Source: a virus (taxonomy: Duplodnaviria > Caudoviricetes). Taken from it: 51,932 nt of DNA. The notes beneath the pieces are model-generated. The model did not search any database. It was not told the DNA's origin and saw nothing but the letters and a program-made list of their open reading frames with translations. Within the stretch, counting starts at the first letter, position 1. Each line of letters begins with the position of its first letter. The stretch is from positions 1 to 51,932 of the IMG/VR virus record IMGVR_UViG_3300017913_002066. One strand, written 5' to 3'. Below, piece by piece: positions 2,775 to 26,524 of the stretch. The translations under genes and the position numbers were made by a program.

Positions 2775-3374
2775 ATGCCATTAATAGATCTCAATACTAG
2801 GCAAATATTTTTTATACACATACCTAAAACTAGTGGATCTTCTTTATACTACAATCTAAAAAAACTAGAAAAAGACTGCGTGTCTGTCCGAGGACACGTA
2901 GATGGCATTCCTCTTACTCATTTACATGTAGAAATGGCGGAAAAGCACTGGCCGGACTACTACTCATATCAAAAATTTACAATAGTAAGAGAACCTAAAC
3001 AACGCCTACTATCAGGTTACTTGTATCATAAAAAACATACAGAAACCCTAGAAGATTTCGATCAATGGTTTAGTAAGTTGTGTGTAATGCTAGATAATAA
3101 TAGAAGTTGGATGCGTAATCATTTTAGACCACAGGTAGATTTCATACCTAAAGATACAAAAATATTTGATATAGAAGAACAAGACACTATCTATACATGG
3201 CTTAGCGATTACTTAAATATAGAAATTCCTCACGGTATAGTAAGGAATAAACAGCCCACCGACATAGACAACACAAGCATAGATATATTCGATTACATGA
3301 GCGATAACAATATAGATAAATTTAATTCTTTGTATTCTAAAGATATAGATATGCATAAGGACTTGACAACATAG
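2775..3374 (+). CDS. sulfotransferase (Sulfotransfer_2 / carbohydrate sulfotransferase-like)
   Basis: 5'-PSB motif FFIHIPKTSGSS, 3'-PB motif FTIVREPKQRLLSGYLY, and HFRPQ. Confidence 0.85.
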   Translation: MPLIDLNTRQIFFIHIPKTSGSSLYYNLKKLEKDCVSVRGHVDGIPLTHLHVEMAEKHWPDYYSYQKFTIVREPKQRLLSGYLYHKKHTETLEDFDQWFSKLCVMLDNNRSWMRNHFRPQVDFIPKDTKIFDIEEQDTIYTWLSDYLNIEIPHGIVRNKQPTDIDNTSIDIFDYMSDNNIDKFNSLYSKDIDMHKDLTT

Positions 3375-3391
3375 GCATTTTGTTGTATAGT
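3363..3391 (+). promoter_or_regulatory. sigma70-type (early) promoter
   Basis: TTGACA (3363-3368), 17 nt spacer, TATAGT (3386-3391). The panD ATG (3398) follows 6 nt later, at the expected +1. Confidence 0.8.
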
Positions 3392-3397
3392 AGTACT

Positions 3398-3754
3398 ATG
3401 AAAGAATATATACAAGCTAAACTTCACGACATTACAGTAACAGCAAAAAGCATAGACTATCATGGCAGTGTAACTATCTGTTCAAACTTACTGAGAGAAT
3501 CAGGTATTGAACCCTACCAAAAAGTTGATGTTGTAAATCTTAATACAGGTGATAGATGGACAACCTATGCTGTGCCAGGACCTGCAAAATCATTTGAATT
3601 AAACGGTGGTGGTGCAAGACTAGGTGAAATTGGAGATAAGTGTGTTGTTATAGCATACGAAATGAAAGACCAATTTACTGGTGCAAAAGTAGTTTTCGTC
3701 AATAAGTACAATACAAAACTAGAAAGTATTAAATATGCACCAAATACTATATGA
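3398..3754 (+). CDS. panD: L-aspartate 1-decarboxylase (pyruvoyl-dependent, makes beta-alanine)
   Basis: AKLH (Lys9/His11 equivalents), YHG|S autocleavage site (Gly24-Ser25), GDRWTTY (Arg54/Thr57/Tyr58), LNGGGARL and GDxxxVIAY are all collinear with PanD. Start reassigned to ATG 3398. Confidence 0.92.
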   Translation: MKEYIQAKLHDITVTAKSIDYHGSVTICSNLLRESGIEPYQKVDVVNLNTGDRWTTYAVPGPAKSFELNGGGARLGEIGDKCVVIAYEMKDQFTGAKVVFVNKYNTKLESIKYAPNTI

Positions 3755-4301
3755 ACTAAATGACTTAGATACATCTTCATTTGAGGATATTTCAAAATTT
3801 GAATTTGGAAGTTACGGTTTGCCTAAGATGAAGATCTACAATAAGGCAGTATATACAAGTCAATATCCCGATCTGTTGCTTATATACAAAAAATTTAAAA
3901 ATGCAAGACAGCTATTTGATTGGGCAGAAGTTATGTATGTTCCGCCGCATAATTGTGTAATGCCACATATAGATGCAGACAGATATTGTGCTATTAACAT
4001 ACCTGTATCAGGAGATTTTGAAAATTCATATCTTGCTTTTTTTAACAAAGGGCAACAGGAATTTCCAAACATTTATGAAGAAAATGGTAAAATGATACAA
4101 AAGAGTGGTGGTGGTTATCCTGATGCTACTATTGACTACAAAGTGTCATATACTTACCCTACACTTATAAATGTATCAAAAATACACAATGTAATAAACG
4201 AAACAGAACAAAATAGGATTGTTTTAAGTTTAACGTTTAAGCAAGAACACAGATATGAAGATATCTTAGATCTATATAATAACGGAGAGTTACTTTGGTA
4301 A
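3735..4301 (+). CDS. Fe(II)/2OG-type oxygenase (DSBH, Asp/Asn beta-hydroxylase-like)
   Basis: PHID...AINIPV...INVSKIHNV...NRIVLSL gives the HxD...H...R pattern. Confidence 0.7.
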   Translation: MHQILYELNDLDTSSFEDISKFEFGSYGLPKMKIYNKAVYTSQYPDLLLIYKKFKNARQLFDWAEVMYVPPHNCVMPHIDADRYCAINIPVSGDFENSYLAFFNKGQQEFPNIYEENGKMIQKSGGGYPDATIDYKVSYTYPTLINVSKIHNVINETEQNRIVLSLTFKQEHRYEDILDLYNNGELLW

Positions 4302-4897
4302 CAGTGCGTAAATTAGAAGATAAAGATAAAGAAGAATTTATCAATTTTATTAACGCAGAAGAACAAAAAAATAGTGAGCGCAGGAAACCTAGACCTTGGC
4401 TAATAGATAATATTAATTTCAACGCAAGTTATAGACAATGCTTTGGTGCATTTGATAATGGAGAACTTGTAGCTACTTGTGCAATTAATCATTGGCCAGT
4501 TTGGCCTTGGAGTACGCTAGACACTTTAGTTGTAAAATATGGCTTGCCAACAGATGTAGCTAGACAGTGCTTTAATAGACTTACAGTAACAATTAAAGAT
4601 TTTAATGAAGAACATAACATTTTTGCAATATGGGCTGTGCGAGATTTACGACAAGCTAAGGCACTTATGCGTTCAAAAGATGCATTTTACAAAGATGGAA
4701 TGTTAAGCGAAGGTTATATGTACCTAGAACTAGGTATTATTCCTGCAAACAAAAAATCAAGCTATTTTGCATTTAATAAAATGTTAGAAGATAGAGTGTA
4801 TCCTGTTGATATGCATATAGGTGTATATATAAAAGATCCAGAATACTATCCTAAAGACTGGTATAATAAAATAACATATGCACAAGATACTGATTAA
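4295..4897 (+). CDS. GNAT-fold acyltransferase-like protein
   Basis: VRKLEDKDKEEF N-terminus and CFGAFDNGELVATC beta-hairpin are typical of GNATs, but the acetyl-CoA motif A is not canonical. TTG start with upstream GGAG. Confidence 0.5.
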   Translation: MVTVRKLEDKDKEEFINFINAEEQKNSERRKPRPWLIDNINFNASYRQCFGAFDNGELVATCAINHWPVWPWSTLDTLVVKYGLPTDVARQCFNRLTVTIKDFNEEHNIFAIWAVRDLRQAKALMRSKDAFYKDGMLSEGYMYLELGIIPANKKSSYFAFNKMLEDRVYPVDMHIGVYIKDPEYYPKDWYNKITYAQDTD

Positions 4898-5996
4898 TCA
4901 TCAAAGCTACAATAGCCAGCATCTGTTTGACGAACTCAAAGACTATAGTTTGTTTAGTATTAGTAGCGATCAAAATATCTTACAACCTAGGACAGACTAT
5001 TCAAATAATTTTGTTACGCATAAGATTATAAAAGGCATTCCTCATAGACTAGATTATGGCACAGAAATAAAAAAGTACTACAGTGAAAATAACATTGACA
5101 TATTCTTTCCTTTGTACAATGATATGCTTTTGCCTTATATTTGGGAAATATGCAATTTATCGCGAGTGCAAACAGATATTCTTTATAGCAAGTACAATTA
5201 TATTGCACATTTTAGAGAAGCAGGCATTCCTGTTCCTAGTACAACACGATACTGGCCATCAATAAAATACCCTTGTATAGCAAAACCAGACAACGGTACA
5301 GGTGGCTTAGGGGTAAAATATATCAAAGATTACGATGATCTAAAAAACTTTATTACAGACGATATACAACATATAGATCTAGGACAAGGCTACACCTTTC
5401 AAGAATACATAGAAGGCACATTGGTAAGTGTAGCAGGGCGGGTTGTGAATGGAGAAACTATAGTAGATTGCATTTATGACATAGAGTCTAGTGAATTGCC
5501 TTACAGAGCAGAGATAGGTTTTACATACCCTAGTCGTGTAGATATACAAGATAAAATTAAAGATTATTGCAAACAAGCAGTTGATAGCTTAGAACTAAAA
5601 AACAATATTTGGATGGCTGATTTTATTGTATCAGATGATGCATACATTATAGACTTTAGCCCACGTTTAAGCGTAAGCGTATCTAAGATTGTAAATAGTT
5701 TAAGTGATGTACCATATAGCCATTTTGTAGTAGATGCATTGCAAGGTATCTACAAACCATTAGAATTACAGAATGACAGTATTGTGTATAGACACTTTCC
5801 GATCAACAAAGGTTTATACAATCACAAACAACCTTTGCTTCCTGATAGTTGCTTAGAATTTGTTGCACCAGAAGAAAAAGTGTATATGGACAGATTTGAT
5901 CTACAAGTAGGAATAAAAGGATATGCTGTGTGCAAAGGCAAAAGTATTGAACAATGCAATACAGATTGGAATAGTATAAAGGAACAATTAGTATGA
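4878..5996 (+). CDS. ATP-grasp ligase (amino-acid/peptide ligase-like)
   Basis: YPCIAKPDNGTGGLGV, FQEYIEG, ADF...IIDFSPRLS (a variant of ExNxR). Confidence 0.85.
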   Translation: MHKILINHQSYNSQHLFDELKDYSLFSISSDQNILQPRTDYSNNFVTHKIIKGIPHRLDYGTEIKKYYSENNIDIFFPLYNDMLLPYIWEICNLSRVQTDILYSKYNYIAHFREAGIPVPSTTRYWPSIKYPCIAKPDNGTGGLGVKYIKDYDDLKNFITDDIQHIDLGQGYTFQEYIEGTLVSVAGRVVNGETIVDCIYDIESSELPYRAEIGFTYPSRVDIQDKIKDYCKQAVDSLELKNNIWMADFIVSDDAYIIDFSPRLSVSVSKIVNSLSDVPYSHFVVDALQGIYKPLELQNDSIVYRHFPINKGLYNHKQPLLPDSCLEFVAPEEKVYMDRFDLQVGIKGYAVCKGKSIEQCNTDWNSIKEQLV

Positions 5997-6745
5997 AAAA
6001 GTTTGTAGTTACAGGAACTCCAAGGAGTGGCACAACCTTTTTTTGTAGGACATTAGAAAAAGAATCAAACATACTTTTACCTAGATTTCATAACTATGAA
6101 CCTTTTATTCCGCAAAATAGGATTGTTTCAAGCAATAGGATAGGTATTAGTGCTTTTGACGAAGCTGAAAGTATCAAAAGAATTGTAAAATTTGGCATAG
6201 ATAATAATTTTGATGCTGTTGGATTCAAAACATTTTTTAGTTTTCATTATAATTTTGAAAAGATGTTAGAACAAAATGAACTAGACCATTTCTTAATTTT
6301 GCGTAGAAATGTATGGAAAATTTTTGCCAGCTATTGGATGGCATTTTCAAAAAGTGAATTTGGTAAAAGTAGTTTGATACATGAAGCTATACAAATAGAC
6401 ACCGAATCAGTGATGTCTAAGATAATAAAACAAACAATAGATGCAGTCCTAAAAACATACATGTATCGCAGTCAAATTGAACAGCATCCTAATCATATTG
6501 TTACATTATATTTCGAGGACTTCACTGCCAAAAGCGGCCACATAGGCGATAGCGAACTTACAGAATACTTTGGTAAGCGTATTATATTCCAATCAGGGTA
6601 TGATGATCCTCAACACAAACCTAGTGATTACATAAAAAATATACAAGAAATCAAAGAAAAATTTGTAGATCCTTTATTAAATAGTAAGGCTGTAGCAGGC
6701 TTACCACAAGATGTTTTAGAAAGTCTCCACAATGATTGCATATAG
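5993..6745 (+). CDS. sulfotransferase (Stf0 / Sulfotransfer_3-like)
   Basis: FVVTGTPRSGTTFF PAPS loop, EPF, GFK, LRRNVWKIFASYW (R...S 3'-PB) and LYFEDF. Confidence 0.8.
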   Translation: MKKFVVTGTPRSGTTFFCRTLEKESNILLPRFHNYEPFIPQNRIVSSNRIGISAFDEAESIKRIVKFGIDNNFDAVGFKTFFSFHYNFEKMLEQNELDHFLILRRNVWKIFASYWMAFSKSEFGKSSLIHEAIQIDTESVMSKIIKQTIDAVLKTYMYRSQIEQHPNHIVTLYFEDFTAKSGHIGDSELTEYFGKRIIFQSGYDDPQHKPSDYIKNIQEIKEKFVDPLLNSKAVAGLPQDVLESLHNDCI

Positions 6746-7100
6746 ATTAACAATAATAGATAATAAGCAGAACGAAACTATTGATGATTTTTACTATGCT
6801 GGAATGACACTTCCAGAAGGTAAGACAGGAACAGGACTACGCCAACTCAGTAGAGAATTTATTGCACAACGTAAAATGTTAGATAGATTGTTTATGCTTA
6901 GTGAATCAGGCAGAGTGTTAGAAGTTACCAGCATATTCAAAGATAGACAAAGTTATAGCGAATTTGTAGAACATGATATACACAGATACAGTTTAGAGTT
7001 TTTTGAATCTAAAAATTGGCAAGTGATAAGAAGTGTATTCAATCTTAATGATTACAAAAATTTAAAGGTTGAAATGTTTAGAGACGGTGCATTTAGATAG
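6732..7100 (+). CDS. small hypothetical protein, possible ferredoxin-like/ABM-Dabb alpha+beta fold
   Basis: 122-aa ORF coupled to the previous gene. LSESGRVLEVTSIFKDRQSYSEFVEHDIH resembles the strand-helix of ABM-like proteins (weak). Confidence 0.55.
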   Translation: MIAYRLTIIDNKQNETIDDFYYAGMTLPEGKTGTGLRQLSREFIAQRKMLDRLFMLSESGRVLEVTSIFKDRQSYSEFVEHDIHRYSLEFFESKNWQVIRSVFNLNDYKNLKVEMFRDGAFR

Positions 7101-7812
7101 GTACAAAGTCTCTATTAACTATAAACTCAGGCCTTGATGGCTTTGTTACTTTATTATCTAAACTATTATAGCATACAAAAAATATACATCTATCTTTGTC
7201 GCTAGTATTTGCACTGCTTTTGTGCCATAAATTACTGTGCATACAGAACACATCACCTGCTTTGCCAAGCACTGTATGACGCTTATATTGCGTTTTAGAC
7301 ACCATCTCTTGTGTAATCATACCGTTAGTTTCTTTGTTATCGTGCTTTATTTGATAGGTTTTGCTAGGTTGTTTTGTTATGTATTCTACGTGACTTCCAC
7401 TTAATACTTCTAAAGGTCCGTTATCTATTTCCATGTCATCAACAAGAAAAAGACAACTTATAGCATCAGGCTTGAGCATTCCGTCATCTGCACACCAAAA
7501 AGTGTAATCACTGTGCCAAGCGTATTCACCGCCTACTTTTGCTTTCTTGTAGTTGAAATGGTTTTGGTGCATATAGACATTGTTGCCTAATATGCTTTTT
7601 ACAGTGTCAAGCACTTTAGGATTTTCTATGTATTCGGACAGTGTGTCGTCAAGCCAAAACGGACTAAACACGCTACGCACATCACCTGTTTGCTCATATA
7701 GGAAATAATCTTTGTTTTTGTGTTGTAATATTTGCTGAGATTTTTCTTTAAGTGCAACTGGATCAAAAACATTGTGCAGGTGTATCCACCCTTGACTTTC
7801 GTAATTTTGCAT
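7093..7812 (-). CDS. PhyH-family Fe(II)/2OG dioxygenase, ectoine/proline hydroxylase-like
   Basis: YMHQNHFNYK...YAWHSDYTFWCADDGML resembles the EctD signature FxWHSDFETWHxEDG(M/L)P. Also NGPLEVLSGSH, GKAGDV...HSNLWHKSSAN...R. Start reassigned to ATG 7812 (MQNYESQG). Confidence 0.88.
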   Translation of the reverse strand: MQNYESQGWIHLHNVFDPVALKEKSQQILQHKNKDYFLYEQTGDVRSVFSPFWLDDTLSEYIENPKVLDTVKSILGNNVYMHQNHFNYKKAKVGGEYAWHSDYTFWCADDGMLKPDAISCLFLVDDMEIDNGPLEVLSGSHVEYITKQPSKTYQIKHDNKETNGMITQEMVSKTQYKRHTVLGKAGDVFCMHSNLWHKSSANTSDKDRCIFFVCYNSLDNKVTKPSRPEFIVNRDFVPI

Positions 7813-7851: not shown

Positions 7852-8232
7852 ATGAAGAAAGTAAGTATTACAATCAATCCAGGACTTGGAACATTTGACA
7901 CAGACGTTGCTCTGCTCGACGAAATGTATAACAGAGCTGCTAACACAGATACAGCCGCTTTGGATACAGCAATCCAGACAGCAACACAAAACGGCGACAT
8001 TTGGATGCGTACATCGGATCTAACATCTACTAACGATGGCGTAATTTTTACATTTATACTAGACAGTGCAGACGCTTTGGCTTCCTTTAACACAAACATC
8101 AAGCCAAAACTTGAAGCAGGTTTGAATATTATGAATGCTACATATGGTTGGACAGAAGAAGATATGACATTTGATCAGTTCAGCACCTATGCTGCTGCGA
8201 ACAACGAAACGAACTTTACAGGCGCTTCATAA
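7852..8232 (+). CDS. small acidic A/T/D/N-rich protein, possible virion protein
   Basis: Perfect SD GGAGG, late promoter motif, 126 aa, no Cys or His; composition unlike the neighbouring enzymes. Confidence 0.7.
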   Translation: MKKVSITINPGLGTFDTDVALLDEMYNRAANTDTAALDTAIQTATQNGDIWMRTSDLTSTNDGVIFTFILDSADALASFNTNIKPKLEAGLNIMNATYGWTEEDMTFDQFSTYAAANNETNFTGAS

Positions 8233-9049
8233 GTTCTTCTACAGTTAGTTCATAAGTACCATTAAACACACTGAGCTCTTGCATTATGTCAAGAGCTTTT
8301 TCATTTAAAGCATCTGTAACACTTTCCCAACCTGTGTATTTTTCCCTATGATTTACATTATAGATACGATGCTTACTAGTACGAGTGCTTAGTTTTCCTG
8401 GCATTTGATTATTAATTAGTTTCTGCACTATAGGATCATGCGTAAATGCTTTTACCATTTCGCTTGTATATCTAAGAAAATCAGGTGTGCCGTCTATGTC
8501 ATTCAGTCTATACCAATTGTTGTAAGAATTTACACGCTCTGTTTCTTGCCAACGCCATTCGCCATAGTAGTTTTTAAAGTAGGGTTCGCCGTTTGCCATT
8601 ATCACTGTATCATCAAATAATGTCAGCCCTTTCATTACAGGAATCATTTGATGTGCATAACATTTTGCTTCTCTTGCGATATGTTCGTATTCTCCGCTAT
8701 CTATGAGCTGTCCAACATCAACAGTCTTAATAATAGGATCTATCTTGTTTAGGACGCAATACTGCAAAGCATATTTTATGTCATGTTTGTTGAGATGATC
8801 AGCATATTCTATGATACCAATATTAAAATCTACACCAGCTTCTTGGAAAGTTCGGATCATAAATTGACTATCAATACCTCCACTAAATAGAAGTGTAATG
8901 GGTCCTTTTGCTTGTTCTTGTATAATTTGGGCTGCACGAATAGATTCGTCTTTCCAAGTTCCAAAACTTTTGCATGTGGGCTTTAACTTTACGTTCCAGT
9001 CAGCACCGTGGCCTTCGAATGTAATATAATTGAGATGTGATAAATGCAT
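8216..9049 (-). CDS. PP-loop N-type ATP pyrophosphatase (asparagine-synthetase C-domain-like)
   Basis: ITLLFSGGIDSQ PP-loop; VIMANGEP; no N-terminal glutaminase domain. Start reassigned to ATG 9049. Confidence 0.7.
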   Translation of the reverse strand: MHLSHLNYITFEGHGADWNVKLKPTCKSFGTWKDESIRAAQIIQEQAKGPITLLFSGGIDSQFMIRTFQEAGVDFNIGIIEYADHLNKHDIKYALQYCVLNKIDPIIKTVDVGQLIDSGEYEHIAREAKCYAHQMIPVMKGLTLFDDTVIMANGEPYFKNYYGEWRWQETERVNSYNNWYRLNDIDGTPDFLRYTSEMVKAFTHDPIVQKLINNQMPGKLSTRTSKHRIYNVNHREKYTGWESVTDALNEKALDIMQELSVFNGTYELTVEELMKRL

Positions 9050-9715
9050 AACTTTGAACCTATAGATTTTGATTTTGATCAACAAGTTCTTTACAACGAC
9101 TTATTAGACTTTGGTATTTTTAACCGAAGCAAACTTGCTACAGTTATTTACACTGAAGGCCGTAGCAAGTATGACAAAGACGGCGTGTTTGATGATTATG
9201 AAGATGTTGTGCATTATAACGAAGATGGCGAGCTACAAGAGAAAGACTATAATACCTTTGTCACATATAACTTTACACACATACCAGGTATAGAAGAAAC
9301 ATACAACAGCAGTTTTGTAGATACACCAGAAGGCAGACGTCCAGTGTGGCATGTGTATGATCAAGCCTGGCAGTGGAAAGAAAATACTCCTGATAGCATA
9401 ATACAAACTGTAGATAGATTAGGCTTGTCATATGTAAGTTGTGTCAGACTTGTAGGACAAAATCCTCCTAGCAAAGGTATAGTGCATGTAGATAGTGCAT
9501 ACAGAGACAATCTAAAATATTTTAGAAACGGTGGAACAAGCATTACACTTAATGTATCTGATGGCGGAGGACATTTGGAATACATAGAAGGCAAAGAAGT
9601 GCATACAGTAGATGAGTCTAAACATAAAAGTTGGTTTTTCAACGATGCACTACAGCATAGAACAACGGAAATATTTTCACCTAGAATACAGATAAGGGTA
9701 TTTGGACACAAATGA
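9044..9715 (+). CDS. Fe(II)/2OG-type oxygenase (DSBH)
   Basis: VRLV...GIVHVD...ITLNV...FFNDALQH...RIQIRVFG. Confidence 0.7.
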   Translation: MHNFEPIDFDFDQQVLYNDLLDFGIFNRSKLATVIYTEGRSKYDKDGVFDDYEDVVHYNEDGELQEKDYNTFVTYNFTHIPGIEETYNSSFVDTPEGRRPVWHVYDQAWQWKENTPDSIIQTVDRLGLSYVSCVRLVGQNPPSKGIVHVDSAYRDNLKYFRNGGTSITLNVSDGGGHLEYIEGKEVHTVDESKHKSWFFNDALQHRTTEIFSPRIQIRVFGHK

Positions 9716-10428: not shown

Positions 10429-11042
10429 AAGTATTATATTCTCCTATAGATTTACCAGACTTTCAATTAGACATTGAAAAATTTTTAGAATGGCATACTA
10501 ATAAAAAGCGCAGAGCATTAGACAATATAGGGTATGATAAAAATGAATTTAGGTCACCTTGGTTGCTTAGTTTTGCTTATAAGGAAGAATTAGGATGGTG
10601 TGATGAATTCTTATCTATTGCTCCAGACTTTAAAGACATTATAGACCAAGCACCATTTAAAAAATTAACATACATAAACTTTCTAGAACAAAAGATTCCT
10701 TGCCAAGAACATCAAGACTGGACAAGTCGTGGTCCAGAAACAGGGATGCCTGACACATATAAGGCATTTATATTTTATGATCAACCTTTAATGTATATGA
10801 AAAAAGGACGTACAAAACAAGAGTTACAATCAGAAAAACATTACATACACCATCCATTAGATAAAACAAGATGGTTTGGGCTAAACAATTATGACGGATT
10901 CCATGCTGGAGAAATTCCTCCTGAAGGAGTACGTAAAATTATAATGACTATAAAAGGTAAAATTGATTTAGACAAACATAAAATAATTATTGACAGAAGT
11001 GTCAAAAAATATAAAGATTATTTGATTACATTAGATATATAA
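10425..11042 (+). CDS. Fe(II)/2OG-type oxygenase (DSBH), paralog of 9712-10428
   Basis: EHQD...WFGLNNYDGFHAG...RKII. N-terminal YSPIDLPD...FLEWHT matches FSPLDLPD...FLAWHT. ATG at 10425 in an ATGA overlap. Confidence 0.7.
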   Translation: MKVLYSPIDLPDFQLDIEKFLEWHTNKKRRALDNIGYDKNEFRSPWLLSFAYKEELGWCDEFLSIAPDFKDIIDQAPFKKLTYINFLEQKIPCQEHQDWTSRGPETGMPDTYKAFIFYDQPLMYMKKGRTKQELQSEKHYIHHPLDKTRWFGLNNYDGFHAGEIPPEGVRKIIMTIKGKIDLDKHKIIIDRSVKKYKDYLITLDI

Positions 11043-17848: not shown

Positions 17849-20353
17849 AAAACACTTCCTGAAATTCAAGACGTACTAAATGGAATAAGTCCTAGTTTTT
17901 GCATTGCAAAATGGCATAGAACAAATCTAAGACTGTATAACGGAACAGCTTATAGTTGTCATCATTGCACAGCACGTAATATAAACTTGGACAAACTAAA
18001 AGACGATCCTAGTGCGCTTACAAACACAGACGAAGTGCTAGAGTTTAGACAGCAAATGCTAGACGGAGAACGTCCTTCTGAATGTGCATACTGCTGGCAG
18101 AAAGAAGATCAAGGTCTTGTTAGTGATCGTCTTATAAAGAGCAAAAACTTTGTAGAACGTCACGATATCATTGCAACAGATACAGCCTCAGATTTATCCT
18201 CATTTCCTACAATATTAGATGTAGCATTTGATAACACATGTAACTTTAAGTGCAGCTATTGTGGTCCTGCTAACAGTAGTATGTGGATGCAAGAAATGGA
18301 ACAGTACGGCGATTATCCTACATCATACAAAAAGAAATCTGTTGAAACTGTTAAGTCAGAAATGATACTTAACAGAGAAGATAATCCTTACATAGAAGCT
18401 TTTTGGAAATGGTGGGACTTAGGACTAGGAAAACATCTGCAACGTCTAACAATTACTGGTGGAGAGCCACTATTATCAAAGCATACTTTCAAAGTTCTTG
18501 ATAAGATTATACAGGACGATCTTGATCTAACTATTAATATTAATACTAATTTGTGTGTGCCGGATGGCGTATTCAACGGCTTTAGAATGAAACTTGCTAA
18601 ATTACCTGTTGAAGAAATTATTATAAGCACGAGCATAGAATCACTAGGCGCACAAGCCGAGTACAGTAGATACGGATTAGAATATAAAAAATGGCTTAAG
18701 AATGTACATACAGTATTACAAAATCCAAAAGTGCGTGTAGCTGTAAATCTTACAAACAATGCCCTTAGTTATTGTGAAATGACAGATGCATTAGAGCTAT
18801 TGGCTAGTTTAAAAATAAGATATGGTGCAAACAGGATCTATATAAGCAGTAATGATGTATTGTATCCGAAGTATTTAGATATAAGAGTATTGCCATATCA
18901 TTTACGCAGAGATAGCAGTGTAAGTATAGGAAACTTTATTCAAAAGAATACAAAATTGCTGTCACAAGACGAAATAGATAAAATACAACGAACAGCAAAC
19001 TTCAGTCTTACAACAATGGAAGACGAAGAAACAAATCAAGATGACTTTAAAAAGTTTATTAAAGAATACGACAAACGTAGGAATTTAGATTATAGCATTG
19101 TATTTCCGTACCTAAAACAATTTGTAGATGGTGTAGAAACAAAACAACCTTGGTGTATAGATCCGTTTATCAACTTTAGTCACACAGCTGATGGATATTA
19201 TCGTCCTTGCTGTATCGGAACAGTAGAACGTAACAAAGAAACAGGTAATAATATTAAAGACACTAGTCCTATTGAATATTTTACAGGTCCAGAAATGCAA
19301 AAGTTACGTAGAGAAATGTTAGATGGCAAACTTAGTGCGCATAGTAAAATGTTGTGCAGGCAGTGTGTAAAGAATGATGCTGAAGGTGTAAAGTCAAGAC
19401 GTGTTAAACAAAACGACCAATATTTAATAAAGCCGGAAGTACAGGCTGTTGTAAAGAAATACGAAGATCCCAATTACGTAGCAACATTAGATGATCTACA
19501 ATATGTGAATTTTAAAATACTAGGCAACTTATGCAATCTTAAATGTCTAATGTGCGGACCTAGTGCAAGTAGTAAAATTGCAGCTGAATGGAAAAAACAC
19601 GACATAGCTGGACACGGTGATATGCCTAAGGCAGAACTATTGCCATATGACGAAAACAGCAAAGAAAGTTATATGAGAGACTTTGATAAAATTATATCAA
19701 ACATCAGTGACTTTAATATGGTAGGAGGCGAAGCATTTATAAATCCTAATTTTGACGAAATTTGGGAAACAATAATTAATAATGATAACGTAAAAAATCT
19801 AAAATTACTTATAATTACTAACGGCACATTATTACCACAAAAAGTTTTAGATGCTGCACATAAATTTAAAACATTAAGATTGTTGTTTAGCATAGACGGT
19901 GTATATGAAAGAGGTAGCTATGTGCGTAGTGGCCTTAGTTGGAAAACATTTGATAAAAATGTTAAACGTGCTTTAGCAAGTGATGCGGTAGTTGCATTTA
20001 CTGTAGCAACAAGTATGTTGAATATAGGATATTTAGATGATATCTATGATTACCTAAAAGGACTAGGTGTGCAAGATACACATATTGCTTGGGATGCTGT
20101 AGTGACAGAACCTGTACATTTACGTGCAAGCAATCTACCTGATAGTATTAAACAACAGTATATTGAAAAACTTAAAAAACACGAAGTATTCAATCTAGAA
20201 ATAGCAAAATTTAATACAGCCTTAGATATATTACAAACAAAGCAAAGTGATAACGATCAATTTTTACACGGGTTGCGTTTCCTTACAATGACTGATAATA
20301 TACGTAACACTGATGTATATACGCATTTTCCAGAATTTAAGGGTTACTTATAA
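17846..20353 (+). CDS. tandem double radical SAM protein, each half with an N-terminal Cys-rich twitch/SPASM-like domain
   Basis: CNFKCSYC (18239-18262) with ITGGEPL, and CNLKCLMC (19532-19555) with VGGEAF. Cys modules FCIAKW...SCHHC...CAYCW and WCIDPF...RPCC...CRQC. Confidence 0.88.
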   Translation: MKTLPEIQDVLNGISPSFCIAKWHRTNLRLYNGTAYSCHHCTARNINLDKLKDDPSALTNTDEVLEFRQQMLDGERPSECAYCWQKEDQGLVSDRLIKSKNFVERHDIIATDTASDLSSFPTILDVAFDNTCNFKCSYCGPANSSMWMQEMEQYGDYPTSYKKKSVETVKSEMILNREDNPYIEAFWKWWDLGLGKHLQRLTITGGEPLLSKHTFKVLDKIIQDDLDLTININTNLCVPDGVFNGFRMKLAKLPVEEIIISTSIESLGAQAEYSRYGLEYKKWLKNVHTVLQNPKVRVAVNLTNNALSYCEMTDALELLASLKIRYGANRIYISSNDVLYPKYLDIRVLPYHLRRDSSVSIGNFIQKNTKLLSQDEIDKIQRTANFSLTTMEDEETNQDDFKKFIKEYDKRRNLDYSIVFPYLKQFVDGVETKQPWCIDPFINFSHTADGYYRPCCIGTVERNKETGNNIKDTSPIEYFTGPEMQKLRREMLDGKLSAHSKMLCRQCVKNDAEGVKSRRVKQNDQYLIKPEVQAVVKKYEDPNYVATLDDLQYVNFKILGNLCNLKCLMCGPSASSKIAAEWKKHDIAGHGDMPKAELLPYDENSKESYMRDFDKIISNISDFNMVGGEAFINPNFDEIWETIINNDNVKNLKLLIITNGTLLPQKVLDAAHKFKTLRLLFSIDGVYERGSYVRSGLSWKTFDKNVKRALASDAVVAFTVATSMLNIGYLDDIYDYLKGLGVQDTHIAWDAVVTEPVHLRASNLPDSIKQQYIEKLKKHEVFNLEIAKFNTALDILQTKQSDNDQFLHGLRFLTMTDNIRNTDVYTHFPEFKGYL

Positions 20354-21027
20354 CCAATACGCATATAGCGATTATACTTTGTAAGACTAAGTGATCCTGT
20401 AAATAATACTTTACTCAATGGTGCTATTTCTGCAAAATGTAAATTATCCTTTACACAATTCACATGTTCTTCTAGAGCAACATAATCATTGCTCTGTAAG
20501 CATATAAGTTTCCCTTTTGGTATTTTATCAAACCATTCACTGAAGTTTTCGATATGTTCGCAACTAGTGTTTATAATCGTGTCAGGCATTTCTGTAATAG
20601 ATACACTAGTTCCATCAGCACGAAAGGTTGTATAAAAACAAGGATACTCCATATCATGTATATCCATTGTGCTTGCTTTGAATTGCCAACCGTCCATTAC
20701 ATGCGGTTTGTTTATATTATCAGCAACAGGCGCACAACTAGGATCTAGATCAAAGCTACGTATTGTGTCAAACTTTTCTCTACAGCGTTCAAACATTAGA
20801 CTAGCTAGAGTACCATACCATCCGCCGCATATAAAGACAGTACCTAGCTCATTTGGTAAATTTTCTATTAACCACAATTTGCTTTTTATTTGTCCGAGAC
20901 TGTATGCATCTACAAGCGTATCCTCTGTTTCGGGGAATTTTTGTAACGTGCGTTTAATTTGTGCAACTGCATTATTTTCAGGATATAACGCTTCTATACC
21001 ATTTAACAAATTAATTGTATTGGTCAT
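20344..21027 (-). CDS. class I SAM-dependent methyltransferase-like protein
   Basis: VFICGGWYG glycine loop, RSFDLD acidic motif II, IINTSCEH. Confidence 0.65.
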   Translation of the reverse strand: MTNTINLLNGIEALYPENNAVAQIKRTLQKFPETEDTLVDAYSLGQIKSKLWLIENLPNELGTVFICGGWYGTLASLMFERCREKFDTIRSFDLDPSCAPVADNINKPHVMDGWQFKASTMDIHDMEYPCFYTTFRADGTSVSITEMPDTIINTSCEHIENFSEWFDKIPKGKLICLQSNDYVALEEHVNCVKDNLHFAEIAPLSKVLFTGSLSLTKYNRYMRIGYK

Positions 21028-21685
21028 TAAACTGTTCCTTTAACCAATCAAAATCATTTATTAATTGTAGATCCACGCTGTCAGAAAGACCAAACTCCAT
21101 ACCAGCACTAGCCCCGGCCAACGCATATTCACCAAACGTTCTATCTTTCCCAACAGTAGTCCAAACTTTGAGTCTTTCATCTGTTTCCTCCGACTTTTGT
21201 CTATCAATAATTTTTGCACTTAGTTTTGCACACTCACGAAATGCACTTTTCCAAGTTTCAAAGGGTCCTGTGTTAAACGCTGTGATGTTACTAACTACAT
21301 CCATTGCCTTAAAATGCTTGCTTATACTTGTAGTCATGTCAGCACTATCCATTCGCATATCTACTGTAAGTTTTCGCGGAAATAGTTTCACACCACCGTA
21401 GCCGTATTGCAAATCATTTATAGGATTAATACTGCGCCAAACATGCACGGTTTCTAGCTCTTGCTCATTAGGATAGTATAAAAAGTCAAAATCATCTACA
21501 AGATCTGCATCGCCATCTACGATCCAAAACATTTTAGTGCTACACATTTCAGCTGCTTTCTTGTGTGCATTGTGTATTCCTTTTACGCCATGAACTCGTT
21601 TGATTACAGGAAATTTATCCTGTAGTTTTTCAAAACGTTCATTGCAATCAGGTTCTTGATAACTTATAAAAACTACATCATACAT
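21011..21685 (-). CDS. GT-A-fold glycosyltransferase-like protein
   Basis: DVVFISYQEP...RVHGVKGIHNAHKKAA...FWIVDGDA (DxD)...YGYGGVKL...WKSAFRE. Start reassigned to ATG 21685. Confidence 0.7.
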   Translation of the reverse strand: MYDVVFISYQEPDCNERFEKLQDKFPVIKRVHGVKGIHNAHKKAAEMCSTKMFWIVDGDADLVDDFDFLYYPNEQELETVHVWRSINPINDLQYGYGGVKLFPRKLTVDMRMDSADMTTSISKHFKAMDVVSNITAFNTGPFETWKSAFRECAKLSAKIIDRQKSEETDERLKVWTTVGKDRTFGEYALAGASAGMEFGLSDSVDLQLINDFDWLKEQFNDQYN

Positions 21686-23093
21686 TTGATATCTTACACA
21701 AATTAAAAAAATCTTCAAACTCTGGAAACGTGGATAAAAAGTCTTTGCCCCTGCGTTTGTCATATTGCATTATAAATTCCCAAAAGTTATACCTAGTAAT
21801 ATCTAAATCATCACCTGGTGTTGCATCACAACTATCATATATCCTGCGTAATTTTTCTTTTTCCCAAGGACGTATATCATACGTATCCCATTTTTCAAAT
21901 ACAGGTTTAAAAAACTTATCACGTAGCTCAGGTGTTGCAATCCTTACATCTAAAAACTTTGGATTTCTTACATAAGGAAAATCTACCCAAATATTCCTAC
22001 CTTCAAACTTTTGATTTAGCTTTGTAATATCTTGTAGGAAGTCGTCTAGTGTAGTAAGACTCAGCAAGTTAAATGCCGCCATTAGGCTTAAATTTACTTT
22101 TTCTGTAGTTTCCATAAGAGTGTTTATGTTCTTAAACCAAAGGTCGTAATCCATACCATCTCTAATATAATTACATTGTTCACCTGTTGCTTCTGCACTA
22201 GTGTATATTGTAATACTATCTACAACTTTACGTTCTTCAAGTAATTTAACTTTTTCAAGAAAGTCTGCCCATACCTTTGTAGGCGGACATGCATTTGTAT
22301 TAATTGCAAATCTAATATGCGGTTGTGGATTTTCTAACAAGTAATCTATTACACGCATGGTATTTTTGCTTAATAGCGGCTCACCGCCTGTTATACGGAA
22401 AGTATGCATATGTTTAACTGCTTCAGGAAACCAATTCCAAAATGCATCAATATACGGATTTTCTTCTCTTTCAAGTATTTGTATTTCGTCTGGATTAATC
22501 CATCCAAATTCTTTCATACTTCTAAAAGGTCCTTTGTGCGGAGTGTGCTTATATGTGCCGCCCGACTTTACTTCTTCAGTCCATTTGCTACTAAATGCCG
22601 GACCACAATAACTACACTTAAAGTTGCACACATTAGAAAAACTAACTTCTACATGTCGAGGATAAATGTTTTCATCGCCTACACTTGTTTTGATCTTTCC
22701 GTAATCTACTAGGCTCCAAGGTTCCATACTTTTAAGAACTCTATCACTAAAGTGATCTGAATTATCTTCAATGCGCCAACAATAATCGCACTCAACAGGA
22801 CGCTTACCTTGTTTCATTTGCATCCTACGTTCTTTTTTGAATTCTGTATTATGCAATGCACTAGGATCTTTTTCTAATTCATCTAAATGAATTTTATGAG
22901 CTTGCACATGATGACAACTATGTGTAAGGCCACTACCTAAGTGCATAGTTACTTGCGTCCATTTTGCTAGACAAAACCCAGGTCCTGTTTCATTAAGTGC
23001 ATCGCGCATCTTAATAAGGTTTTCATCATTAATTTTTGGCTCGCCACTGCTAGGCCAATGATCTAAGTTAAGTCTTTTTAAATGTTTATTCAT
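21678..23093 (-). CDS. radical SAM protein with N-terminal twitch-like domain (paralog of the first half of 17846-20353)
   Basis: FCLAKW...SCHH...CDYCW...CNFKCSYC...ITGGEPLL...YDKRR. Confidence 0.88.
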   Translation of the reverse strand: MNKHLKRLNLDHWPSSGEPKINDENLIKMRDALNETGPGFCLAKWTQVTMHLGSGLTHSCHHVQAHKIHLDELEKDPSALHNTEFKKERRMQMKQGKRPVECDYCWRIEDNSDHFSDRVLKSMEPWSLVDYGKIKTSVGDENIYPRHVEVSFSNVCNFKCSYCGPAFSSKWTEEVKSGGTYKHTPHKGPFRSMKEFGWINPDEIQILEREENPYIDAFWNWFPEAVKHMHTFRITGGEPLLSKNTMRVIDYLLENPQPHIRFAINTNACPPTKVWADFLEKVKLLEERKVVDSITIYTSAEATGEQCNYIRDGMDYDLWFKNINTLMETTEKVNLSLMAAFNLLSLTTLDDFLQDITKLNQKFEGRNIWVDFPYVRNPKFLDVRIATPELRDKFFKPVFEKWDTYDIRPWEKEKLRRIYDSCDATPGDDLDITRYNFWEFIMQYDKRRGKDFLSTFPEFEDFFNLCKISNV

Positions 23094-24016
23094 TCTGGAT
23101 CAATCACAAACTGTTCTGTTACTGTTCTGCTAGGGTTTTGATATACGTTCTTAAAAAATTTACTTTGCTGTTCATCTAAAGGAACTTCAGCAATAGGAAT
23201 ATCTAGTTCATTAATTAAGTCAATACCTAGTCCGATTATTTCGTACCTAAGTGTTTCATCAGTGATAGCAGTTTTTTGCTTCCACAAATTATTTAGGTAT
23301 TCAAAGTCTCTTACATTTACAAAGTCCCAATCCGAACACATTGTTTTATACAAGCCTTCTCTAGCACCATATATTGCCCAATAACCATTTTGAACATCTG
23401 CACCAATCATCAACCATATCCAAAGACGTTGCAGATTCTTCCAATGGTTATTATGAAACTGTTCAAGTGTTACTCTTTCACCTTGGTCAAGAGCCATTTT
23501 AACACCTTCACGGAATCCTGCACGCCAGGCTTGCTGTGGTGTTGCATTATTATACACATCGCTGTAGCAACTGTTTTGTTGTATGTAGTTCAAGTCCCAA
23601 CAAAAATCCACTTGCGCTTGAGGATTATCTTTTGGTGCATTTTCGTGTGTTCGCATATTCAATACATGTTCTTTGGGCCAACACTTTATTCCGCCGTTGC
23701 CGTACATAAGTCCGTTAATAACATTATGGCCGCACCAGCTAATAACACTGTTTTCTAAATCTGTATGTTCTTCAAAATTTATTTCTTGATTTATGAAGTC
23801 TGGACGTACAACATTGTCTCCATCAATAGTAACAAACCTTTCAGTTTCGCTTAATTCTGCACAGGCTTTGTGTGCAGCATCACTACCTTCTACACCATGT
23901 ACTCTTTTTGCCCAGGGCACTTTTGTTAGCAAATCTGCATAATTTTTTTCTGCATTTGGTTCATCATATGACAAATAAATTATGTCACAATCTGCAACTC
24001 TAAATATCTTACTCAA
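23090..24016 (-). CDS. GT-A-fold glycosyltransferase-like protein (paralog of 21011-21685)
   Basis: DIIYLSYDEPNAE...RVHGVEGSDAAHKACA...IDGDN...YGNGGIKCW...AWRAGFREG. Confidence 0.72.
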   Translation of the reverse strand: MSKIFRVADCDIIYLSYDEPNAEKNYADLLTKVPWAKRVHGVEGSDAAHKACAELSETERFVTIDGDNVVRPDFINQEINFEEHTDLENSVISWCGHNVINGLMYGNGGIKCWPKEHVLNMRTHENAPKDNPQAQVDFCWDLNYIQQNSCYSDVYNNATPQQAWRAGFREGVKMALDQGERVTLEQFHNNHWKNLQRLWIWLMIGADVQNGYWAIYGAREGLYKTMCSDWDFVNVRDFEYLNNLWKQKTAITDETLRYEIIGLGIDLINELDIPIAEVPLDEQQSKFFKNVYQNPSRTVTEQFVIDPE

Positions 24017-24545
24017 CGCTTTCTCCTACATAATGACAATACGTTTCAAAGTCTGGTCTAGTAACAATCATAACATCGTCATAATATTCATTTGGGAATA
24101 TATATTCTGTATCTATATAATCAGCTAATTTACAAGTTAGTGTGTCTAGCAATACATTTGCATTGTTTTTCTTTGTAACATAGAAGTTCTTATCTGCTTG
24201 TAATTTTTTAGTGTTTATAGACAAATTACTTAAATTGTATTCATCGAATGTGTGTGAAATTTTCCACTTGTTGCTGTTCTTGTCCTGTGTAATATATATG
24301 CTGTTTGTGCTTAGATCTTGTACATCTGGAAGAATGTATATGTTGTGTTCATATTTTTGTATAACATCCTTTTTTATTACTTTGTATCTGTCTGTTTTGA
24401 TTACACTGTAATCAGAAAGTTTTGCATTGCCATTTCCAAATTGGTCATAAAGATCAAAAGGAATTTCAACAAATAAATGACTGTCATCTATTTCATTTGT
24501 AACTTTTACAATTTCACCTAAATCATTAAAACAAGCATAAAACAT
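24009..24545 (-). CDS. hypothetical protein (178 aa)
   Basis: ORF translationally coupled on both sides within the glycosyltransferase operon. Confidence 0.7.
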   Translation of the reverse strand: MFYACFNDLGEIVKVTNEIDDSHLFVEIPFDLYDQFGNGNAKLSDYSVIKTDRYKVIKKDVIQKYEHNIYILPDVQDLSTNSIYITQDKNSNKWKISHTFDEYNLSNLSINTKKLQADKNFYVTKKNNANVLLDTLTCKLADYIDTEYIFPNEYYDDVMIVTRPDFETYCHYVGESVE

Positions 24546-25348
24546 TATACAAACTCCTCTAAAACAGCAGGTGTAATAAATTCATCTTCTATATAATGCA
24601 ATATGCCTGTTTGTTTGTATGTGCCAATATATACACCATCATCTACAAACACATCAAGTATATCTGTCCATTTTTCAGGTGCATTAGCCCAATGCTGTGC
24701 ATGTGGTTTCATATGTGTAAAATGTATAGGTAAATCTAATCTCGGCAAGTCTAATAGCTTGTATGCTAATGCGCAATTTACATCAAAACTTTCCCATTTT
24801 TGTCTATGCTTTGGCACAAACTTCCTATAAAATATTTCCCAGTCTTTTGAAATAACCTCTACCAAATTAAAAAACTTGTGTGCATTTGCGTTCTTTTTAA
24901 AATAGTATAATCCACTGTATAAATCAGGCAAATCATTGTTTGTAAAAGTCTTGCGATAGTAGTCTGTATTAACTCTATCGCCTCTATATGTAAATGTTCT
25001 AGTAGTGAATGCAATATCGTGATGACCGCAGATATCCCACCAATGCTCTATATTATCTAAAACAAGCATATCTGCGTCCATAACAAATGTTTCTTCATAA
25101 GGTGTAATATGATACACCTTCCATCTGTTCTCTATTTTCCAATCACTACTATGTGCAAGATTACCCCACGGTATTTCTATTACTTGATCAAATACATGCA
25201 TGTATTCCTTGGGCACATCGTCATCTGTGATAATACTAACACGTTGATTGCTGTTATTTTTGTGTATGCTTGCGGCTAATAAGTATGCCTGGCGCACATA
25301 GTCTGTGTCTTTGTTATTTTCAGCTAGTATGCAAAAGCCTTTACTCAT
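24545..25348 (-). CDS. GT8-like / nucleotide-diphospho-sugar transferase
   Basis: YVRQAYLLAASI...FDQVI...TPYEETFVMDADML (DxD)...YSGLYYFKK...FTHMK. Confidence 0.78.
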   Translation of the reverse strand: MSKGFCILAENNKDTDYVRQAYLLAASIHKNNSNQRVSIITDDDVPKEYMHVFDQVIEIPWGNLAHSSDWKIENRWKVYHITPYEETFVMDADMLVLDNIEHWWDICGHHDIAFTTRTFTYRGDRVNTDYYRKTFTNNDLPDLYSGLYYFKKNANAHKFFNLVEVISKDWEIFYRKFVPKHRQKWESFDVNCALAYKLLDLPRLDLPIHFTHMKPHAQHWANAPEKWTDILDVFVDDGVYIGTYKQTGILHYIEDEFITPAVLEEFV

Positions 25349-26183
25349 ACTCAAGCTCCTTGTCTATGTGCCTGTTCAAACTAAACTTATTCATTACATG
25401 AACATCTGCATTAGTTATATTACAAACCATTTCATTTGAGTCTTTGTTAAGTAAAAGTTGCACTTGTTCGTCTTTGATATCAATTAATGTATCTTTATCG
25501 TTGCACATCCATAATGTGTGAGGCATTTTATGTACAAGTGTAGGTTTATTATCACTCATTATATGTATAGCAATACTAAATGCATAATCATTCCTATACA
25601 AAGGACTGGAAATATTATAAAGAAGTCTATAATACTGCCAATTTTCTTTTACATATTGAATTGTATCAAATAATGTCTTTACTTTTTCAGTCTTTTTGAA
25701 ATAAAATGCTGTTGCCCAATACATCGGTACTGTAATGTCACTTACACGTAACTCAGGAGTATTATCTCTACCAGTATGTAAATCTACAGCATACCTACTT
25801 ATTAAAAAATCATTTTTTGATTCAAAACATTGTGCAAGGCTATCGTTGCAAATAACAAGATCTGTATCAATAACTATTGTTTCATCATAAGGAGATATTG
25901 TAAAAGCATCTGCCCTAGTGTAGTTGTCCCAAGGCAAAGACTTAAACTGATCTCCGTCATGATATTTTCTAACTTGCTTGTTAGTATTACTTCTAATGTG
26001 TATTACATTGTCAATATATTTTGTGTAGAACGGATATTCATCCTTTAAATAGTCACTGTTAGGTGTTGCTATAGTTACATCTACACCTATATACTTTTTG
26101 ATACGTTTTGCACAGTATATTGCTTGCTTGATATAATCAATTTCTTTATTATTGGATGCAAATAGAAGTACGCCTTTGCTCAT
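25341..26183 (-). CDS. GT8-like / nucleotide-diphospho-sugar transferase (paralog of the adjacent gene)
   Basis: KGVLLFASNN..DYIKQA...SPYDETIVIDTDL (DxD)...YWATAFYFKK...YRNDYAFSIA...HVMNK. Confidence 0.78.
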   Translation of the reverse strand: MSKGVLLFASNNKEIDYIKQAIYCAKRIKKYIGVDVTIATPNSDYLKDEYPFYTKYIDNVIHIRSNTNKQVRKYHDGDQFKSLPWDNYTRADAFTISPYDETIVIDTDLVICNDSLAQCFESKNDFLISRYAVDLHTGRDNTPELRVSDITVPMYWATAFYFKKTEKVKTLFDTIQYVKENWQYYRLLYNISSPLYRNDYAFSIAIHIMSDNKPTLVHKMPHTLWMCNDKDTLIDIKDEQVQLLLNKDSNEMVCNITNADVHVMNKFSLNRHIDKELEYE

Positions 26184-26524
26184 AGATCAACGAGTCCTTG
26201 TGTTGATCTAGCTTTTTTCAGTTCATTGTATTTTTGTATATACAAATTTGTGCTTTGCACATAGATATCAACAATCTCTGTGTAAAAATCTTCATTGTTT
26301 TCAATTTGTATAGGTGTAGAATTAACATCTAACAAAATAAGATTGTTAATTTTATCCTTTACGTTATGTACAAAATTAATTAGTTCCGGTGTAACAGCAA
26401 ATGCGCCACCGTTATAGTAATAGTAACTATGTTCAAGATACTGTTCGTGCAGTAGCTTTTTTTGATTCTCTAGTGTTGAGGAATATTTTGCAAATTCTAA
26501 GGCTTTTTCTAGTCGCGGGTCCAT
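26180..26524 (-). CDS. hypothetical phage protein (114 aa)
   Basis: SD GGAG then ATG 26524 (MDPRLEKALEF); first gene after a sigma70-type promoter. Confidence 0.75.
   Translation of the reverse strand: MDPRLEKALEFAKYSSTLENQKKLLHEQYLEHSYYYYNGGAFAVTPELINFVHNVKDKINNLILLDVNSTPIQIENNEDFYTEIVDIYVQSTNLYIQKYNELKKARSTQGLVDL

Follow-up and report, generated by a model that had tools for sequence, protein, structure and literature searches.

The DNA analysed here, called the window below, is the 51,932-nucleotide IMG/VR virus record IMGVR_UViG_3300017913_002066. At positions 2775-26524 it carries an island of 32 close-packed genes (o06-o37), bordered on the left by an Mtd_N fibre gene (1611-2771) and on the right by tail fibre, collar and baseplate genes. 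An earlier note on this DNA had described about 30 packed open reading frames between an Mtd_N fibre gene and a tail module, and this layout is borne out by Pfam (Mtd_N) and PHROG (tail) matches. The island has two parts, an eight-gene core (26524-20344, minus strand) and an accessory arm (2775-20353). In the window the arm is oxygenase-rich and radical-SAM-poor, with about two dozen predicted tailoring enzymes. The features are as follows (DSBH, double-stranded beta-helix; 2OG, 2-oxoglutarate; late motif, ATAAATA).

49..1561, plus: o01-o04, function unknown, fixed left flank (at 28-29 of the 29 loci found with o03; phrog_13789, phrog_15894)
1573..1579, plus: late-promoter-like ATAAATA ahead of fibre gene o05 (motif match)
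1611..2771, plus: o05, Mtd_N tail-fibre-like protein, left bracket (Pfam Mtd_N, E 1.4e-12)
2775..3374, plus: o06, sulfotransferase (Pfam Sulfotransfer_2, E 4.5e-8; phrog_3347, E 1.7e-14)
3363..3391, plus: sigma70-type promoter ahead of PanD (11/12 consensus; consensus match only)
3398..3754, plus: PanD-like aspartate decarboxylase (Pfam Asp_decarbox, E 1.2e-28)
3735..4301, plus: o08, AspH-like DSBH oxygenase (profile link, E 4e-14; HID...H)
4295..4897, plus: o09, possible GNAT (homologue adjoins ATP-grasp gene in relative G005)
4878..5996, plus: o10, ATP-grasp ligase (Pfam ATP-grasp_3, E 3.9e-13; weak PylC/RimK matches)
5993..6745, plus: o11, second sulfotransferase-like protein (Sulfotransfer_3, E 1.5e-4, below cut-off)
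6732..7100, plus: o12, 122 aa, no family assigned (no matches in Pfam, PHROG or NCBIfam scans)
7093..7812, minus: o13, PhyH/EctD-like 2OG-Fe(II) hydroxylase (Pfam PhyH, E 8e-28; EctD 3emr, E 1.8e-29; late motif at 7824)
7852..8232, plus: o14, 126 aa, no family assigned (own late motif at 7829; homologue at the matching place in G005)
8216..9049, minus: o15, PP-loop ATPase-like (SGGxDS motif; TilS_N, E 0.009)
9044..11042, plus: o16, o17 and o18, DSBH oxygenase-like (o17 AspH, E 0.004; o17 and o18 paralogous, with profile links to o26/o08; a motif alone for o16)
11018..12457, minus: o19, B12-type radical SAM protein (Pfam Radical_SAM, E 9e-20; best NCBIfam matches are B12 radical SAM families, all below cut-off)
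12457..13209, minus: o20, membrane fatty-acid desaturase (Pfam FA_desaturase, E 2e-21; late motif at 13221)
13250..13924, plus: o21, AspH-like oxygenase (Pfam Asp_Arg_Hydrox, E 1e-6)
13919..17819, minus: operon o28-o22, with oxygenase-like o28, o27, o26 and o25, SGNH-like o24, degenerate cupin o23 and GNAT-like o22 (late motif at 17831)
17846..20353, plus: o29, tandem twitch-domain radical SAM protein, two domains (NF033640, 592 bits against a cut-off of 170)
20344..21027, minus: o30, predicted class I methyltransferase (weak; best PDB match, E 0.098)
21011..21685, minus: o31, GT-A-like paralogue of o33 (invariant DxD common to both)
21678..23093, minus: o32, twitch-domain radical SAM protein (NF033640, 307 bits against a cut-off of 170)
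23090..24016, minus: o33, GT-A-fold protein (AF2 pLDDT 89; the most conserved island gene among those tested)
24009..24545, minus: o34, 178 aa, no family found (in 18/19 islands)
24545..26183, minus: o35 and o36, glycogenin-like GT8 paralogues (profile and fold matches)
26180..26524, minus: o37, 114 aa, first core gene (virus-only clusters)
26545..26573, minus: sigma70-type promoter of the core operon (conserved in 13/18 genomes, against 0.03 in shuffled sequence)
26577..33535, minus: o38-o42, fibre and collar genes with late motifs, fixed right flank (PHROG tail matches)

The island is real and phage-encoded. Its phage belongs with the Rak2/GAP32-like jumbo myoviruses, the baseplate wedge being closest to those of SCTP-2, Phosso, Atu_ph07 and RaK2/CBB-like jumbo myoviruses (34-37%); one relative, G016 (381,886 bp), is rated complete by CheckV. 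The GC content is 32-36% in the island against 38-40% in the adjoining flanks, and the window holds no tRNAs. A chimera of phage and cellular DNA, a concern of the earlier note, is ruled out because the same flanks occur in 18 related contigs and both junctions are bridged in other runs. The fibre-island junction (1986-3170) is spanned with 0 differences by a contig of another sample, which lies within the study that is the possible source, and the o37-o39 junction (26255-27531) with 2 differences by a second contig from the same sample. Runs with window DNA are mainly seawater or viral metagenomes. Two other studies cover 27/30 and 30/30 bins of positions 1-20000, and an RNA run of one further study holds a 93-98% variant over 29/30 of these bins; the RNA runs contain the island as contigs only, a form from which transcription is not demonstrable. 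Summed read depth, a crude measure, is several-fold higher in the left flank than in the island, as expected where the flanks, but not the islands, are common to many phages.

How far are the two parts of the island conserved? Of 26 related contigs searched, 18 with both flanks were used (those left out are three apparent near-duplicates, two contigs that stop short of the core and three in which the left marker is missing), and all 18 keep the order left flank, island, core, fibre genes. Measurements were made on 18 islands including that of the window; G016, in which o37 was missed by the gene caller, was skipped. These islands range from 18 to 53 kb and from 20 to 56 genes, and share few accessory genes (median Jaccard 0.16, range 0.05-0.66), so that the suggestion of the earlier note that synteny with relatives might reveal a hypervariable island between fixed flanks proved right. 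The window, with three radical SAM genes, has the fewest (others 4-17) and, with 10 oxygenases, is among the richest (range 1-11, three relatives having just one).

The core is more constant. The o33 protein has a median identity of 64%, against 34-56% for flanking proteins. In all 69 loci whose upstream DNA is long enough to tell (the other 11 of 80 are too short), o33 is preceded on its own strand by o37-o36-o35, and a fibre gene lies upstream of o37-o36-o35 in 68 of the 69. The distal core is looser, o30 being present in 47 of 81 loci and sometimes truncated. From o33, the core is estimated to occur in about 1,100 IMG/VR stretches. Among 50,697 phage records the sole match to o33 or o36 is the cultured Ralstonia phage RsoM2USA, a soil phage with a different host, in which ORF354-347 are 31-44% identical to the core genes and come in the same order (o34 is matched by its position only). 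There the core follows a fibre-like gene, and an NDP-sugar epimerase is found among the tail genes. No accessory arm comes after this core, and no window oxygenase matches the region around it. The accessible part of the published RsoM2USA description assigns no function to ORF347-354, and the proteomics it reports is limited to 10 gel bands. Since the core is kept across hosts, a phage-encoded acceptor fits better than a variable host O-antigen.

The four glycosyltransferase-like proteins of the earlier note are all in the core and are upheld by fold. o35 has a GT8 fold closest to glycogenin (hmmsearch E 4e-7; Foldseek E 5.5e-9), and hhalign pairs o36 with it as a paralogue (99.8%). For o33, Foldseek finds SunS/ThuS (E 3e-4), VIA gives Z scores of 10.3 for B4GALNT1 (rmsd 3.0, 139 aligned) and 10.0 for STIV A197, and the top fold matches include a capsid glycosyltransferase of PBCV-1. 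Residues D65-x-D67 are invariant across 60 sequences. Neither o33 nor o31 matches a named family in Pfam or NCBIfam; the structural model of o33 has a GT-A fold, and its paralogue o31 shares the invariant DxD. In two relatives o33, o31 and o30 are fused as a single glycosyltransferase-glycosyltransferase-methyltransferase protein, and in several more o33 and o31 are fused, which makes a common substrate for the three proteins probable. Some o31 homologues (L126:14700-17264, minus strand; L042, L055, L139, L143) have a variable number of N-terminal degenerate GT-A-like repeats and reach about 850 aa, which suggests repeat expansion. No transmembrane helix is predicted in any core protein.

Sugars or cyclitols are the substrates of some enzymes with twitch domains. 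o29 in the arm and o32 in the core are members of NCBIfam NF033640 above cut-off, a family whose name says nothing on substrate, and we found no literature linking twitch radical SAM enzymes to such a system. For o37 the nearest named family is DUF4376 (0.89), a lead only: DUF4376 is among the 25 families shown for none of 49 o37 members, and of its 586 homologues none of the 120 listed has any Pfam domain. Family searches with o34 returned nothing. A role of the two proteins as tail-fibre chaperones, DUF4376- or Tfa-like, is speculative. Some o34 homologues (L152:4633-5970 and similar) have an insertion of about 250 aa separating two conserved halves.

Members of the o33 family also occur in cells. 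In Bdellovibrionota contigs with housekeeping genes (L171, L173, L184, L185, L192, L204) they lie within GT2-rich loci, with twitch radical SAM genes present in several genomes; in many Bdellovibrionales the locus sits between dnaB and rplI. A quick tree of o33, o31 and cellular homologues has weak backbone support and does not indicate a direction of donation. In eight further contigs (L155, L162, L156, L157, L159, L163, L167, L168) phage fibre genes and the core cassette appear inside bacterial metagenome-assembled genomes. Such bacterial labels on phage-like contigs were taken as co-binning; these contigs are probably co-binned phage DNA, and their placement may mislead the taxonomy of these families.

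In the arm, much of the inventory drawn up in the earlier note has profile matches. PanD, the ATP-grasp ligase and the desaturase match Asp_decarbox, ATP-grasp_3 and FA_desaturase, and the four radical SAM domains of the island are spread over three genes (o19, o29, o32). Of two claimed sulfotransferases, o06 stands and o11 falls below cut-off. The eleven or so DSBH oxygenases come, on sequence criteria, to eight firm, ten likely and eleven at most: seven (o08, o17, o18, o21, o25, o26, o28) are joined in one AspH-like profile network and o13 is PhyH/EctD-like, while o16 and o27 have an HxD...H motif only and o23, the eleventh, lacks HxD. As for the two GNATs, o22 is backed by a profile containing a Pfam Acetyltransf_1 member, but o09 has no support in Pfam, NCBIfam or PDB. 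The PP-loop (o15) and SGNH (o24) calls hold at motif level and the methyltransferase call (o30) weakly; in o24 the position of the catalytic His is read as Gly.

The PanD-like protein scores 73 bits against equivalog TIGR00223, below its cut-off of 106. What we take to be its catalytic residues (K-x-H, the G-S cleavage site, R and Y) seem intact, and it is predicted to supply beta-alanine. o13 scores 124 bits against the EctD equivalog TIGR02408, below the cut-off of 336.5. o19 is predicted from its family matches to be a methyltransferase. A protein search with o14 gave a single match (96%), and this protein is a candidate structural or acceptor protein.

The window contains no nonribosomal peptide synthetase (NRPS), polyketide synthase (PKS) or transporter, and its island no nucleotide-metabolism gene; desaturase o20 is the sole predicted membrane protein of the island. 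The absence of synthases and transporters claimed in the earlier note thus holds for the window, but transporters do occur in the islands of relatives. These islands also encode UDP-glucose dehydrogenase, epimerases, DegT and carbamoyltransferases, besides AMP-binding, thioesterase, halogenase and polyamine genes. Examples of other contents are an ABC transporter operon (L133:1869-5343), TctA (L119:8069-9505), a tryptophan halogenase (L150:17997-19544) and a copper-binding-fused subtilase (L141:5627-7561). A transmembrane helix is predicted in 20 of 759 island genes, and no flippase, GT-C, NRPS or PKS was found among 208 scanned island representatives, many of which have no match at all.

ATAAATA is given as a putative late promoter of phages CBB and GAP32 in the accessible text of PMC5259590. 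Promoters here are consensus matches, not measured starts. At positions 1-34000 of the window there are eight ATAAATA sites, each 12-38 nt upstream of a start on the same strand; four lie within the island, where the motif heads 4 of 11 operon leaders. Across the family, 24 of 212 accessory leaders have it, spread over 11 of the 19 genomes, where shuffled sequence gives 6.7 (maximum 15 in 500); among fibre-gene leaders, 44 of 48 have it. Transcription from the site ahead of o05 could read through into 2775-7100. The divergent gaps at 7812-7852, 13209-13250 and 17819-17846 each have TAAATA-type motifs on both strands.

On the left, a homologue of o05 comes directly after o04 in 27 of 29 loci. 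On the right, the PA5oct genes at positions matching the o38-o42 region are annotated as virion proteins by electrospray tandem mass spectrometry (ESI-MS/MS), and a 5,029-aa gene at 33555-48644 (minus strand) adjoins the baseplate wedge, where Atu_ph07 and PA5oct have genes annotated as virion structural. Two ideas about the fibre genes were discarded. An exclusive pairing of o38 with the cassette fails on 11 Pseudomonas phage records that have an o38 homologue and no match to o33 or o36, and Ser/Thr-rich fibres cannot serve as evidence of glycosylation, PA5oct homologues without the cassette being equally rich. At the corresponding place behind its o39 homologue, Agrobacterium phage Atu_ph07, a cultured hairy jumbo phage, carries a different cluster (L218:17811-24549, gp172-gp165) with a cupin and three radical SAM genes, which gives a marginal match only to the island families of the window.

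What might such an island make? We favour, with a probability of about 0.5, a methylated glycan that is built on a phage-encoded acceptor, likely the fibres, and then diversified by the arm. A glycan is the likely scaffold given the folds of the core proteins, the gene fusions, the Bdellovibrionota loci and the sugar genes of relatives. A virion protein is favoured as target because the core is almost always linked to fibre genes, whose PA5oct counterparts are annotated as virion proteins, and is conserved across hosts, because the enzymes are soluble, because no flippase, GT-C, NRPS or PKS gene was found among the scanned representatives, and because the arm has late motifs; the best fold matches of o35 and o33 include protein- or virion-directed glycosyltransferases (glycogenin, SunS/ThuS, STIV A197, the PBCV-1 capsid enzyme). 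In such a scheme the core would be expressed early from its host-type promoter, so that transferases and Fe-S enzymes would be ready in time. The GT8 pair o35/o36 would prime or extend the glycan in the cytoplasm, o33 and o31 would add sugars, o30 would cap by methylation, and the radical SAM enzymes would oxidise or rearrange sugars. More tentatively, the late oxygenases, sulfotransferases and GNATs could add hydroxyl, sulfate and acyl groups and PanD with the ATP-grasp ligase beta-alanyl groups; the outcome might be a lineage-specific surface chemistry. On this reading the arm probably edits the chain or the acyl and amino-acid groups attached to it. The desaturase and the EctD-like hydroxylase may be unrelated cargo.

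A number of observations weigh against a fibre glycan. Homologues of o38 and o39 are found in PA5oct-like phages that have no match to o33 or o36; in Ser+Thr content (19-24%) these homologues do not differ from the window proteins. The fold scores of o33 are near-tied within 1 Z, with polysaccharide synthases and nucleotidyltransferases among the top rows. Accessory content is not correlated with fibre identity (rho -0.05 over 171 pairs), nor with flank or core identity over the same number of pairs. The strict late motif is missing from 188 of 212 accessory leaders, and in front of the core stands a sigma70-type promoter instead of the late motif, an arrangement that fits host or DNA targets too. 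Desaturase o20 and EctD-like o13 point to lipid or small-molecule substrates, and the arms of relatives hold unrelated cargo (a polyamine ABC transporter, TctA, AdoMet and ornithine decarboxylases, IMP dehydrogenase). The earlier proposal of one combinatorial surface-modification system acting on a pre-existing macromolecule is accordingly kept in part: the enzyme set is all cytoplasmic and a glycan on virion proteins is the best single guess, but the island is in two parts, relatives carry unrelated cargo, and the same desaturase and hydroxylase suggest a lipid or small molecule.

Core and arm could instead remodel a host surface glycan or glycoprotein (O-unit, flagellin, pilin) from the cytoplasm and so block superinfection or grazing. 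The early-type promoter on the core and the cellular homologues in GT2-rich Bdellovibrionota loci are consistent with this, and it is the reading given, in their accessible text, to pelagimyophage (PMC7029224) and cyanophage (PMC7824862) islands. We consider it unlikely for this island: GtrABC-like, flippase and GT-C genes were not found in the window or among the scanned genes of relatives, the core order is common to marine phages and a Ralstonia phage, and the core is tightly linked to fibre genes. Somewhat more doubtful is an arm devoted mainly to a lipid or small-molecule pathway of its own (acyl-amide, amino-lipid, osmolyte) or serving as a cargo hot-spot, next to a core that makes a free or lipid-linked glycoside. 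Its attractions are the membrane desaturase, the EctD-like hydroxylase, PanD with the ATP-grasp ligase, the B12 radical SAM enzyme with its lipid-family matches, the AMP-binding, thioesterase, halogenase and polyamine genes of relatives, the independence of accessory content from core identity, and the metabolite clusters that Iyer 2021 (PMC7824862), in its accessible text, proposes for cyanophages. Neither a scaffold synthase nor an exporter was found in the window, and the presence of the late motif on accessory operons suggests that they act while particles are being assembled. For some of the arm genes, such a pathway is compatible with the fibre glycan that we favour.

The earlier note had hydroxylation come before glycosylation, and AspH-like oxygenases might hydroxylate virion residues that become handles for sugars, as in the hydroxylate-then-glucosylate precedent of Mimivirus L230. 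The seven AspH-like oxygenases and the late motifs would suit this order. It finds no support in relatives: RsoM2USA has the core without an oxygenase arm, no window oxygenase matching the region around it, and three relatives carry a single oxygenase, so that hydroxylation is unlikely as an obligatory first step and the idea as a whole highly improbable. Hypermodification of phage DNA by the glycosyltransferases would account for the early promoter on the core and for an o33 more conserved than its flanking proteins, as for an invariant acceptor. Such hypermodification needs a hydroxymethyl-pyrimidine handle, from a second thymidylate synthase homologue, a C5 methyltransferase with TET or the HMUDK pathway. 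In the complete relative G016, however, ThyA occurs once and is of the ordinary kind, and C5 methyltransferases are absent (controls matched); the island lies within the tail region and is devoid of nucleotide-metabolism genes in the window. Searches with Tet_JBP and HMUDK_hel were uninformative, as they matched nothing, controls included. A DNA target seems to us the least probable of these explanations.

GtrABC serotype conversion relies on a bactoprenol glycosyltransferase, a flippase and a membrane GT-C enzyme. In the window only the desaturase has a predicted transmembrane helix, and no such genes are among those scanned in relatives. The mycobacteriophages that glycosylate their virions are reportedly small phages with few glycosyltransferases, and we know of no large tailoring arm in them. 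Their glycosyltransferases act on capsid and tail proteins (Freeman 2023, as cited in the accessible text of PMC12619734); the moraphages described in PMC12619734 seem to belong to another lineage. For chloroviruses (PMC9614988) and mimiviruses, glycosylation of the virion has been proven. According to the accessible text of PMC9614988, A064R of chlorovirus PBCV-1 has the same glycosyltransferase-glycosyltransferase-methyltransferase layout as the o33-o31-o30 fusions, the PBCV-1 capsid glycosyltransferase genes are early-expressed and mostly without membrane anchors, like the soluble core, and in the Megavirinae capsids or fibrils are decorated by clade-specific glycogene clusters, which comprise 6-33 genes and in some cases include sulfate enzymes. 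The window shares soluble virus-encoded glycosyltransferases and, with the methyltransferase call weak, the three-part unit. The differences are that these are eukaryotic viruses whose glycans have been measured, whereas here there are genes and a fold-level likeness to o33, and that neither twitch radical SAM enzymes nor arrays of oxygenases are mentioned for them in the accessible text.

Closest in layout are published islands of marine phages. The host recognition cluster (HRC) of pelagimyophages and cyanomyophages (Zaragoza-Solas 2020, PMC7029224) is, in the accessible text, likewise a large non-syntenic island of the structural region, where tail fibres are combined with glycosyltransferases and radical SAM cassettes; HRC islands under-recruit reads. 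The window too has a hypervariable fibre and glycosyltransferase island between fixed flanks in the structural region. The HRC belongs, however, to T4-like phages of SAR11 and cyanobacteria, whereas the wedge of the window matches SCTP-2, Atu_ph07 and RaK2-like jumbo phages. The HRC lies between vrlC and the neck gene gp14; this island abuts baseplate and fibre genes on one side and four unknown genes and the contig end on the other. The HRC is interpreted as modifying the host O-chain, and the accessible text does not describe a conserved eight-gene core. The sugar and amino-acid-modification clusters of Iyer 2021 (PMC7824862, section 3.4.10; accessible text) combine polymorphic glycosyltransferases, 2OG/DSBH hydroxylases, carbamoyltransferases, halogenases and methylases in jumbo phages; these are cyanophages, and 'radical SAM', 'sulfotransferase' and RsoM2USA are absent from the paper. 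In the literature searched, which excluded most subscription papers, no description of the eight-gene core in Rak2-like jumbo phages was found.

The core is abundant, with one cultured carrier, and holds GT-A and twitch radical SAM families without assigned function. To this the window contributes an oxygenase-rich extreme and a two-promoter architecture, its significance being tempered by the published look-alike islands. A bolder version of our preferred reading, which we regard as possible but would not count on, is a programmable glycocalyx on a widespread clade of jumbo phages, in which a conserved primer-and-cap machine glycosylates tail fibres and a freely recombining library, with dozens of radical SAM enzymes, oxygenases and sulfo-, acyl- and carbamoyltransferases, writes a lineage-specific code that tunes host recognition or camouflage. 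If true, this would be a phage counterpart of O-antigen diversity with uncharacterised radical-SAM sugar chemistry. If the core decorates virions, the islands would offer many new sugar-tailoring enzymes, and within a large marine clade of jumbo phages not only fibre sequence but also post-translational chemistry would determine host range.

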